Below, piece by piece: positions 23,512 through 24,680 of a stretch of DNA of 64,000 bases. Numbering within the stretch: the stretch's first letter is position 1; every line of letters starts with the position of its first letter. Under the pieces are notes generated by a model that was given only the letters and a program-made list of their open reading frames with translations, ran no database searches and was not told the origin of the DNA. Position numbers and translations under genes: made by a program. The stretch lies in sequence record PQ529420. One strand, given 5' to 3'. This DNA is from Escherichia phage Eryne.

Positions 23512-23588
23512 AATGATAATCATTCTTATTTATAGCTGATTATTTATGCAATAAACTGCATAATGCAATAATGACAATCATTCTTAAC
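23512..23588. repeat. two direct copies of AATGA(T/C)AATCATTCTTA motif
   Basis: Copies at about 23512 and 23570. Confidence 0.5.
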
Positions 23589-23879
23589 TTAAGACCATCT
23601 AACTTATAAAATAATAAGTTATCTAACTAAATTAAAGCTAATTATCTTACTTTTATTTATAACATACTGTTACTATCTTATTGATAACCTTATATTAAAC
23701 AACAATAATCAATGTAAATCATTACTAAGCTAACTATAATCTATCTAACCCTTAAAACTATAACTATAATCTATCGAATTGTTGCACAAAGTAACTATTA
23801 AATTGTTAGTAACATTGCTAAATAATTAATATCCTATCTATTTATGATCTAATCTTTACCTTCCTATTTATCACCTAAC

Positions 23880-23927
23880 TAATCATTTCATACAGTAATC
23901 ATTCCATATAGTAATCATTTCATACAA
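23880..23927. repeat. three tandem 16-nt repeats (TAATCATT core)
   Basis: taatcatttcatacag / taatcattccatatag / taatcatttcatacaa. Confidence 0.55.
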
Positions 23928-23969
23928 TAACTATAACAAGAAATATAATTCGCAAGCGTATCATTAGCA

Positions 23970-24137
23970 GCCTATGCCGGACACATAGGCGGCTAATAAT
24001 AACGCAACTACACACCCCACATAATAACCATCACCGATAGTTATTATTTGTGTTTATGTAGCTTGCAACAATTGCAAGCGCAACAATATACATGGTATAT
24101 TGTATCCCTTACATTGTTGCGGTGCGTTATTATTAGC
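23970..24137. repeat. nested inverted-repeat (cruciform-capable) region
   Basis: Hairpin gcctatg-N7-cataggc; outer IR gctaataataacgc ... gcgttattattagc; inner palindrome gcttgcaacaattgcaagc; IR cgcaacaat ... attgttgcg. Confidence 0.55.
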
Positions 24138-24462
24138 TAATGTTTAGAACATTGGCTATAATATAAGCTAAATAATAAGCTATACAATAATAAACATCGT
24201 GAATAATGATGCTGATGATCATAATGCGCCACCTTCCAGGGGGGCGCTATGTGAACACAAAGAAATCTTTCTTGTCAAGAAAAATATTAACACTATTGCG
24301 CAAAATTATTTATAACTGAATAGATGATTTTTCATACTATTGCCCCTAATTACTTACTATTTGTTGCAATGTATTCCCCCTATTTGTTGAGCCTATTCTC
24401 TTAAAAGCGCAATAAATCAGAATTATCTTGATTTTTAGGTAGTTTTATAGTATAGAAAATAT

Positions 24463-24481
24463 GCAAATGATAATCATTATC
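24463..24481. promoter_or_regulatory. Fur-box-like palindrome
   Basis: gcaaatgataatcattatc differs from GATAATGATAATCATTATC at only 2 positions by eye. Confidence 0.35.
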
Positions 24482-24647
24482 AGCTATCTTCCACGGGTGG
24501 CACTATTTCACGCCAGATCATTTCATTTGGCAAGGTGTATATAGATGTTTAGACTTGCCAAGTTATTGATTTACTTAGAATTTATCTGTTTTGTTGTGAG
24601 TAGTACCTTTCTTGCTCAGAAAATAATCAAAAGTCTTATAAGTCATT

Positions 24648-24680
24648 GAATGATAATGCAAATGATAATTATTCTCATTG
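24648..24680. promoter_or_regulatory. second Fur-box-like GATAAT repeat cluster
   Basis: gaatgataatgcaaatgataattattctcattg. Confidence 0.3.

Follow-up and report, generated by a model that had tools for sequence, protein, structure and literature searches.

The 64,000-nucleotide (nt) stretch of Escherichia phage Eryne analysed here (sequence record PQ529420; hereafter the window) contains a noncoding gap of about 1.7 kb, and the question raised by this locus is what so long an untranslated region is for. A preliminary description, made from the letters alone, had noticed between positions 23512 and 24680 a Fur-box-like site, a cluster of GATAAT motifs, two copies of a related motif and three tandem TAATCATT repeats, and had taken them for one motif family forming a regulatory hub. 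Our analysis leads to the reading that the GATAAT/TAATCATT family represents genuine operator sites of the host's iron-sensing repressor Fur in its iron-loaded form, which lie in a terminal untranslated control region and would act in cis. We put the probability of this reading at roughly 0.5. Its parts differ in strength: the identification of the sites as Fur boxes is well supported at the level of sequence, and we strongly infer that Fur would bind them. The gap length given in the preliminary description was borne out by a terminator at 23280–23298 and a probable start codon at 25038, which mark the two ends of the gap.

Fur-type boxes in two noncoding regions

The following boxes and box-like sites were found. 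Strands are given where one was assigned, bit scores refer to the phage-derived matrix introduced in the next section, and the terminal repeat is the 343-bp direct repeat at 24390–24732 described further below.

23510–23532 (core 23514–23528): Fur-type box A, TAAATGATAATCATTCTTATTTA; 28.6 bits
23568–23590: weak Fur-like copy A', AATGACAATCATTCTTA; 15.2 bits
24206–24242, + strand: degenerate third 'box plus G-rich' module, ATGATGCTGATGATCATAATGCGCCACCTTCCAGGGG; repeat family D1, with 70% identity to the module of box B
24464–24486: Fur-type box B, AAATAT GCAAAT GATAAT C ATTATC; inside the terminal repeat; 17/19 to the consensus
24644–24692 (core 24659–24681): Fur-type super-site C; 29.6 bits, the highest score in the window; within the terminal repeat
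12413–12475: second Fur-type cluster, three overlapping sites (12413, 12436, 12453); 24.6–28.2 bits

All four motif items of the preliminary description were found where it had placed them. The site at 24463–24481, GCAAATGATAATCATTATC, has two mismatches to the classical Fur consensus GATAATGATAATCATTATC, just as had been noted by eye, and is the sole site with three or fewer mismatches to this 19-mer in the 64 kb (0.07 expected). The core of box B, TGATAATCATTATCA at 24468–24482, is a perfect 7-1-7 Fur palindrome. The second GATAAT cluster at 24648–24680 reads TTGAAT GATAAT GCAAAT GATAAT T ATTCTC ATTGAT and, together with the adjoining ATTTGA, forms the seven phased hexamers of super-site C, with the layout (nnnAAT)x4-T-(ATTnnn)x3. 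Hexamer arrays of this kind are known for sites that bind several Fur dimers. The motif AATGA(T/C)AATCATTCTTA occurs at 23512 and 23570 (repeat family D2). The first copy belongs to box A, which lies about 210 nt beyond the terminator of the right-end gene array, and the second is copy A', which is stronger in other genomes of the genus Justusliebigvirus (AATAATGATAATCATTCTT).

Measured against the 19-mer consensus, box B matches at 17/19 positions and box C as well as the sites at 12412 and 12435 at 15/19. The 7-1-7 inverted heptamer TGATAATnATTATCA (or at least three NAT(A/T)AT hexamers) was found with no mismatch at 24468 and with a single mismatch at both 24663 and 12417. Enrichment was assessed against 1000 dinucleotide shuffles of the AT-rich region itself. 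With up to two mismatches allowed, the 7-1-7 motif occurred at three sites compared to a shuffle mean of 0.08, and none of the shuffles reached three; with up to four mismatches, the 19-mer likewise occurred at three sites (0.05 expected; 0/1000 shuffles). Fur-like sites exceeded the expectation for AT-rich DNA at every threshold, contrary to what the preliminary description had named as refuting its reading.

In the window, strong sites outside the gap were restricted to the cluster at 12413–12475, within a noncoding region (11976–12996) that is 98% conserved and lies between the homologues of phi92 gp223 and gp224. The boxes of this cluster are preceded by three direct repeats of 67–75 nt (12174–12394) and followed by G-rich structured sequence. 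The equivalent region of phage alia contains five boxes. A near-consensus promoter on the - strand, TTGACA-17-TATACT (12734–12706), is directed at the 12413–12475 boxes. When a complete Justusliebigvirus genome of 148,442 bp was scanned, 9/9 sites scoring at least 16 bits fell into its two largest gaps free of open reading frames (ORFs), which are the same two regions, and the other 146 kb contained no strong sites. Markov-1 random genomes yielded 0.1 positions at 20 bits or more.

The gap was aligned with genomes of Phapecoctavirus (about 52% identity overall), with phiWec188 and with a third lineage from metagenomes. Conserved islands comprised the terminator, box A, a structured element, both boundaries of the terminal repeat, box B, a hairpin with an ATTGAT block, box C and a stretch that immediately precedes the first gene. 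Boxes A, B and C showed an identity of about 0.75 compared to a regional mean of 0.52, corresponding to the 80–84th percentile of cross-genus conservation, and their positions were kept while the flanks diverged. In the slot of box A (81st percentile), Phapecoctavirus carries the box TGATAACCATTATCA, about 250 nt past the stop codon of the upstream gene, and the metagenomic lineage carries TGATAACTATTATCA at a matching distance from the structured element. Counterparts of box B (84th percentile) in other lineages are TAATAATCATTCTCA, TGAGAAAGATTCTCA and TGAGAAGCGTTATCA. Few blocks of the terminal repeat are conserved over a greater length than box C in the aligned diverged relatives, and the version of box C in phiWec188, GATAATGATAATTATTCTC, matches the consensus at 17/19 positions. 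Copy A' reached the 57th percentile and is partially conserved in Phapecoctavirus. The alignments indicate that the Fur-type sites are conserved by selection. A region of 25–35% GC with many kinds of repeats might produce such motifs by chance; this origin is refuted by the shuffles (0/1000) and by the lack of strong sites in the other 146 kb, the conservation across lineages also speaks against it, and we regard it as highly improbable.

The idea of a single motif family was only partly right, as was that of a regulatory hub. TAATCATT occurs ten times in the window, and five of these occurrences lie between 23517 and 24478, all on the + strand. Three of the 16-nt units built on this motif are present in tandem, as had been described:

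23880–23927, + strand: three tandem 16-nt repeats (TAATCATTYCATAYAR); repeat family D3; lineage-specific variable-number repeat

These repeats vary between two and three copies among relatives, are annotated as repeat_region in phage inny, score poorly as Fur sites and rank in the 0–5th percentile of cross-genus conservation. The array is absent from Phapecoctavirus, which yet has two to three ATCATT motifs spaced by 15–16 nt. By these measures the 16-nt TAATCATT repeats are not Fur boxes and no part of the Fur-site system, and the copy at 23570 is weak and only partly conserved. The degenerate module at 24206 has five mismatches to the 19-mer consensus and is not conserved in Phapecoctavirus.

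Sequence specificity and spread among phages

A 23-column matrix was derived from 31 phage sites of six genomes (four Stephanstirmvirinae lineages plus the vequintavirus KpS8); its consensus is TAAATGATAATCATTATCATTTA. Applied to 26 kb of the Escherichia coli K-12 chromosome carrying the enterobactin cluster, the matrix placed its first four hits in the intergenic regions fepB|entC (twice), fepA|fes and fepD|entS, which make up about 3% of the scanned sequence. We take these regions to be the Fur-controlled divergent promoters of the ent-fep cluster. In sequence specificity the phage sites appear to match established Fur operators, and as sequences they cannot be told from chromosomal ones. 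The Fur-box assignment is supported for the site at 24463, the cluster at 24648–24680 and the copy at 23512: they are enriched, keep their positions across diverged lineages, occur throughout the genome only in noncoding DNA and have sequences equivalent to those of the E. coli operators. The ARG box and other AT-rich palindrome consensus sequences fitted worse than Fur in a comparison made by eye only. A tblastn search of a closely related complete genome detected no Fur homologue (E. coli Fur as query; best E = 2.7).

The same palindromes might be the target of a phage protein (an early repressor or the small subunit of the terminase, for example), or they might function as RNA or single-stranded DNA hairpins, with their likeness to Fur boxes being coincidence or mimicry. 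Such roles would fit the observation that the middle three bases vary while the outer arms TGAkAA/TTmTCA and the AAAT/ATTT flanks are kept, that a box of KpS8 forms a hairpin within a large predicted structure, and that boxes recur with a G-rich partner as a repeated 37-nt module. This partner, however, is not conserved outside Justusliebigvirus. The hexamer-array architecture is specific to Fur, the best hits of the phage-derived matrix in E. coli are genuine Fur operators, and the same motif occurs in families with little common gene content (T5-like, phi92-like, rV5-like and jumbo phages). We therefore consider recognition by a phage protein or a hairpin function unlikely.

When viral contigs were scanned for exact occurrences of AATGATAATNATTATCATT, more than 120 loci were obtained, two of them in T5-like Salmonella phages. 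In Spc35, an array of five boxes (locus 2479–2980) lies beside DnaA boxes in first-step-transfer DNA, at the inner, untranslated end of the left terminal repeat as annotated. In T5 itself (AY587007), boxes at 9471–9493, 9575–9597 and 9610–9632 score 22–32 bits and coincide with annotated copies of direct repeat C and with palindromes E, G and I; they adjoin the 7.9% nick and the first-step-transfer shear point. Searching with a synthetic query of three boxes gave arrays in 339 phage records, those of phages CR3 and Munch among them, and nearly all of the matches listed lie in DNA without an annotated gene. Within the Vequintavirinae, Cronobacter phage CR3 has four boxes, and Klebsiella phage KpS8, a more distant relative, has five in and just past its noncoding gap. 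The 350-kb jumbo Salmonella phage Munch carries five boxes upstream of gene 001. Because the box-bearing families share little beyond their hosts, a shared host factor is simpler than a shared phage protein, and a host protein would be the simplest common ligand of the arrays. One uncultivated contig, IMGVR_UViG_3300033068_002045, contains 13 tandem Fur-type boxes at a spacing of about 45 bp (10763–11322) at the contig end. Two further uncultivated contigs with box clusters (L044 and L124) were dropped, with no match among isolate phages.

The genome terminus and other parts of the gap

The segment 23250–25000 matched 81 phage records, 47 of which cover at least 80% of the query at about 91–95% identity. 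These 47 records are phi92-like E. coli myophages of the genus Justusliebigvirus, subfamily Stephanstirmvirinae, and by this relationship the window derives from a phi92-like virulent myophage (Justusliebigvirus). Four records labelled as Campylobacter phages, MG065639, MG065645, MG065656 and MG065689 (A150, A145, C3 and A110a), share 94.5% identity with this region of an E. coli phage, and their host labels look doubtful. The main features of the gap besides the boxes are:

23280–23308, + strand: intrinsic terminator, stem-loop AGGGCGCACAAAGCGCCCT followed by a T run; after the Phi92_gp248 (T4 gp30.8-like) homologue; left edge of the gap
23970–24137: conserved multi-hairpin element, 168 nt; about 250 bp left of the terminal repeat
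24390–24732: 343-bp direct terminal repeat; assignment based on homology to phi92

The gap extends from the terminator (from 23280), which is annotated as such in phage Paula and conserved in Phapecoctavirus, to the probable start codon at 25038. On one side it borders on the homologue of Phi92_gp248, with which the phi92 map ends, and on the other on the genes with which that map begins. In the phi92 record, repeats of 343 bp are annotated at 1–343 (left) and 148270–148612 (right), and in a three-way alignment both repeat ends fell at sharp points, window positions 24390 and 24732, with only a handful of mismatches. By homology, 24390–24732 would thus be the sequence present at both ends of the virion DNA. 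Direct terminal repeats at the genome ends have been reported for Stephanstirmvirinae (PMC12695924). Since the phi92 repeats align at 24390–24732 and the gap lies between the genes at the two ends of the map, the gap corresponds to the genome-end or concatemer-junction region; by homology, the long noncoding region is above all the terminus of a short-terminal-repeat phage. Boxes B and C lie within the direct terminal repeat and are therefore expected twice in each virion DNA. Both repeat boundaries (24384–24393 and 24727–24736) carry the motif GTT(G/A)/AGC(C/A), the slash before AGC marking the boundary, in the form TTGTTG/AGCC on the left and GCGTTA/AGCA on the right. The boundary motifs TGTTGAGC and TCGCGTT(A/C)AGCA are kept in the aligned diverged relatives, and GTT(G/A)/AGC(C/A) is a candidate nicking site for the terminase.

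The multi-hairpin element starts with a 7-bp hairpin with an invariant loop, CCGGACA, followed by a 15-bp AT-rich closing stem (23992–24006 with 24123–24137) around three to four hairpins. The consensus structure has 46 pairs, ten of them with compensatory changes. Of the alignment cells, 98.2% were paired compared to 20–46% in slid controls, and 0/500 shuffles reached the observed value. Fold z-scores were -6.5 for + strand RNA, -8.0 for - strand RNA and -7.7 for DNA. As to the strand, four G.T wobble cells favour + and 13 A.C cells favour -, representing only about six independent events. The region 23970–24137 is a well-supported new structured nucleic-acid element, predicted to form as RNA or as a DNA cruciform or hairpin on either strand. 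It had no Rfam match at the gathering score, 23200–25050 giving only E above 3, and exact-pattern scans for it found only three viral and seven metagenomic loci. An analogous fold of about 210 nt with a 17-bp closing stem (z = -8.4) is predicted at 6270–6490 of KpS8, and its internal hairpins include Fur-like palindromes. Situated beside the terminal repeat, the structured element may bear on the duplication or packaging of short terminal repeats. A perfect TATAAT at 23944–23949 could, judging from its sequence, start a + strand transcript just ahead of the element. The terminus, the 343-bp repeat and this covarying element had all escaped the preliminary description.

Within and around the repeat, further short elements were read from the sequence:

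24527–24571: inverted repeat TTGGCAAG...CTTGCCAA, followed by IHF-core-like CAAGTTATTGAT (24559–24571, - strand)
24799–24815 and 24876–24892, + strand: two copies of the AAAGGGGTGTGT module; repeat family D15; AAAGGGGTGTGT..GGTATA, upstream of the first gene
23590–23950, + strand: G-poor, AT-rich spacer, about 25% GC, GC skew about -0.4 (composition profile)

Most of the lineages in the alignment retain the block ATGTTTAGACTTGCCAA..ATTGATTTA; the Phapecoctavirus rows diverge to some extent. Two copies of the 12-mer CAAGTTATTGAT, both on the - strand, match the IHF core WATCAANNNNTTR, one at 24559–24571 inside the repeat and one at 24765–24777 just outside; these are two of the 11 such matches in the window and are statistically not compelling alone.

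Fur, perhaps together with IHF, might serve an architectural role, bending or coating the terminal repeat for terminase assembly, repeat duplication or DNA entry. Much of what is conserved in the 343-bp repeat consists of boxes B and C, which flank the conserved hairpin and the IHF-core-like motif and lie between boundaries that share GTTR/AGC. At the onset of DNA entry the only proteins available are those of the host, and the T5 boxes are situated next to the 7.9% nick and the shear point of first-step transfer; the closest parallels would be IHF at lambda cosB and the T5 injection-stop region. Such a role leaves unexplained the strongest array (12413–12475), about 12 kb from the terminal repeat, and sits poorly with the T5 boxes being about 9.5 kb from the physical end. 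To our knowledge, Fur is not a packaging or injection cofactor. On balance an architectural function seems improbable.

The AAAGGGGTGTGT modules belong to a block, GGGGTGT..AAAAATA..GGTATATAT.G.ATAATTGATAGG, that is well conserved across genera (0.75 identity). Of the eight copies of GGGGTG(T/G) in the window, six fall into the two noncoding regions (24799, 24876, 12005, 12490, 12675 and, on the - strand, 24010), two of them heading the AAAGGGGTGTGT modules. The sequence of the spacer diverges across genera, and Phapecoctavirus keeps its G-poor, A/C-rich character with AAC-type repeats. A replication origin based on DnaA boxes was ruled out, since none of the 11 exact matches to TTWTNCACA in the window lies within 11976–12996 or 23265–24980. 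Searches of the whole window for tRNA, tmRNA and Rfam families were negative. The gap is also unlikely to be coding: a 65-aa ORF at 23319–23516 is broken by indels in Phapecoctavirus, and an RBS-like (ribosome-binding site) AAGGAG/ATG at 23395 is absent there.

Two promoter candidates precede the first left-end gene:

24887–24915, + strand: promoter candidate TTAAAA-17-AATAAT, from the promoter scan
24972–25040, + strand: proximal promoter candidate TTGTAA-17-TATGAT (24972–25000), ribosome-binding site AAAGGAG and probable start codon ATG at 25038

In phage inny, the -10 hexamer of the proximal candidate is TATAAT. Mechanically, the ORF of the first gene opens at 24981; the ribosome-binding site AAAGGAG and the annotation of phage Paula at the equivalent ATG favour a start at 25038. 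The boxes themselves contain or abut -10-like hexamers (TATCTT, GATATT and GAGAAT; GATAAT and TATCAT on the - strand) with weak -35 partners. For the 'box plus G-rich' modules, no start sites could be assigned consistently across lineages on either strand.

Modes of action and known systems

As to function, Fe2+-Fur dimers already present in the cell could bind cooperatively to the arrays during DNA entry, at a time when no phage protein has yet been made. Bound Fur would then act in cis by occluding or blocking transcription that starts in or crosses the terminal untranslated regions, and would tie this transcription to the iron status of the host. In this phage, CR3 and Munch, the arrays lie 240–580 nt upstream of a block of co-directional small, supposedly early, genes, and in both the window and T5 the first box follows 210–270 nt beyond a terminator. 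Because of this position, upstream of co-directional genes and past a terminator, we favour iron-dependent occlusion in cis.

Several points weigh against this conclusion. The sigma-70 scan of the region revealed no excess of promoters (17 compared to 14.8 expected), and both of the best gene-proximal candidates (24887–24915 and 24972–25000) are located downstream of the repeat and overlap no box; the classical arrangement of an operator on a promoter is therefore hypothetical. The core columns of the matrix are partly circular, as the sites had been pre-selected with a Fur-like TGATAAnnnTTATCA pattern; this selection does not affect the flank and centre columns or the test on E. coli. The middle three bases of the palindrome (AGA, GGA, GCG, CCA, TCC) vary more than the canonical AAT-n-ATT core suggests. 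Some boxes of KpS8 form hairpins in the larger predicted fold, and the palindromes may have a structural role. Finally, repression of the early region would have no obvious benefit for a lytic phage in iron-replete cells.

The boxes might alternatively act in trans as a sponge that titrates Fur, with hundreds of replicating genomes of seven to nine strong sites each. This would turn on iron uptake and the iron-sparing response and feed phage iron enzymes such as ribonucleotide reductase. Multicopy Fur boxes derepress the regulon, which is the principle of the Fur titration assay. Tandem arrays of three to five boxes at 17–38 bp spacing, far from gene starts, would suit high-capacity binding, duplication of the terminal repeat raises the copy number, and the gene-proximal promoter candidates overlap no box. 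A sponge, however, does not need strict conservation of position across lineages, and its timing is unfavourable, a high copy number being reached only late in infection. T5 degrades host DNA within minutes; it has the same arrays, and derepression of host genes could not help it. Titration of Fur is thus a doubtful explanation.

Beyond this phage, we tentatively propose, with less confidence than for the cis-acting operators, that Fur-box arrays in terminal or leading untranslated DNA arose convergently in unrelated large virulent phages of Enterobacterales (phi92-, rV5- and T5-like and jumbo phages) and recruit iron-loaded Fur onto the incoming genome ahead of all phage proteins, as an iron-status switch for early development or as part of a terminal nucleoprotein complex. 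If so, the direct repeat C and palindrome units beside the T5 injection-stop region, long unexplained, would be Fur sites, giving a testable identity to conserved repeats for which the T5 genome annotation lists no function. If Fur binds, the relatives of phi92, phAPEC8 and rV5 as well as T5-like phages, which include therapeutic and model coliphages, would read host iron or use Fur structurally from the moment of DNA entry. Iron is limiting in gut, urine and blood, and such a dependence could affect phage performance in the body. Fur would also be added to the few host nutrient regulators (PhoB, NtcA) that virulent phages exploit. In the literature on Fur boxes in lytic phages, on terminal repeats and on T5 first-step-transfer DNA we found no link between Fur and phage repeats (coverage partial, novelty unproven). 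The Davison comparative study of the T5 region covers its repeats and DnaA boxes and never mentions Fur (bioRxiv 10.1101/866236).

The phage sites resemble the E. coli Fur operators of fepB-entC, fepA-fes and fepDGC-entS (consensus GATAATGATAATCATTATC) in the match of 17/19, the 7-1-7 palindrome, the AAAT/ATTT flanks and the hexamer arrays. Unlike these operators, they are located in a terminal repeat and in large untranslated regions, the best gene-proximal promoter candidates lie outside them, and no iron-related gene lies downstream. A virulent phage carrying sites for a nutrient-sensing factor of its host, so that expression tracks host physiology, has its counterpart in lytic cyanophages, which have Pho boxes (PhoB) and NtcA sites at promoters of identifiable metabolic genes. 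In contrast to those sites, the arrays described here lie in terminal or untranslated DNA without an assigned target gene. The present sites would be another instance of host regulator sites taken over by a virulent phage, made notable by their apparent convergent spread and by the link to the T5 repeats.

With regard to the genome end, the terminal repeat of T7 and T3 is flanked by short repeat arrays, a nearby inverted repeat has been proposed as a hairpin intermediate, and lambda cosB contains an IHF site. The present junction is alike in having a short repeat amid arrays, a strongly conserved inverted-repeat element about 250 bp to the left and a possible host-factor site in the packaging region. 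It differs in that there is no sequence similarity and that the implied host factor would be Fur. The closest likeness in placement is Repeat Region 3 of T5 (copies 1–4 of direct repeat C and palindromes E, G and I in the annotation of Wang et al., AY587007). There the same box recurs, for example TAAATGAGAATCATTATCATTTG at 9575–9597, and the arrays occupy the untranslated part of the terminal repeat, a few hundred nt past the terminator that closes a small early-gene block, next to the injection-stop region, DnaA boxes and the 7.9% nick. T5 belongs to an unrelated family, has a repeat of 10 kb compared to 343 bp and DnaA boxes along with its array, and shows no homology beyond the boxes. The likeness to the T5 direct repeat C and palindromes is one of motif and placement, not of homology of the region.

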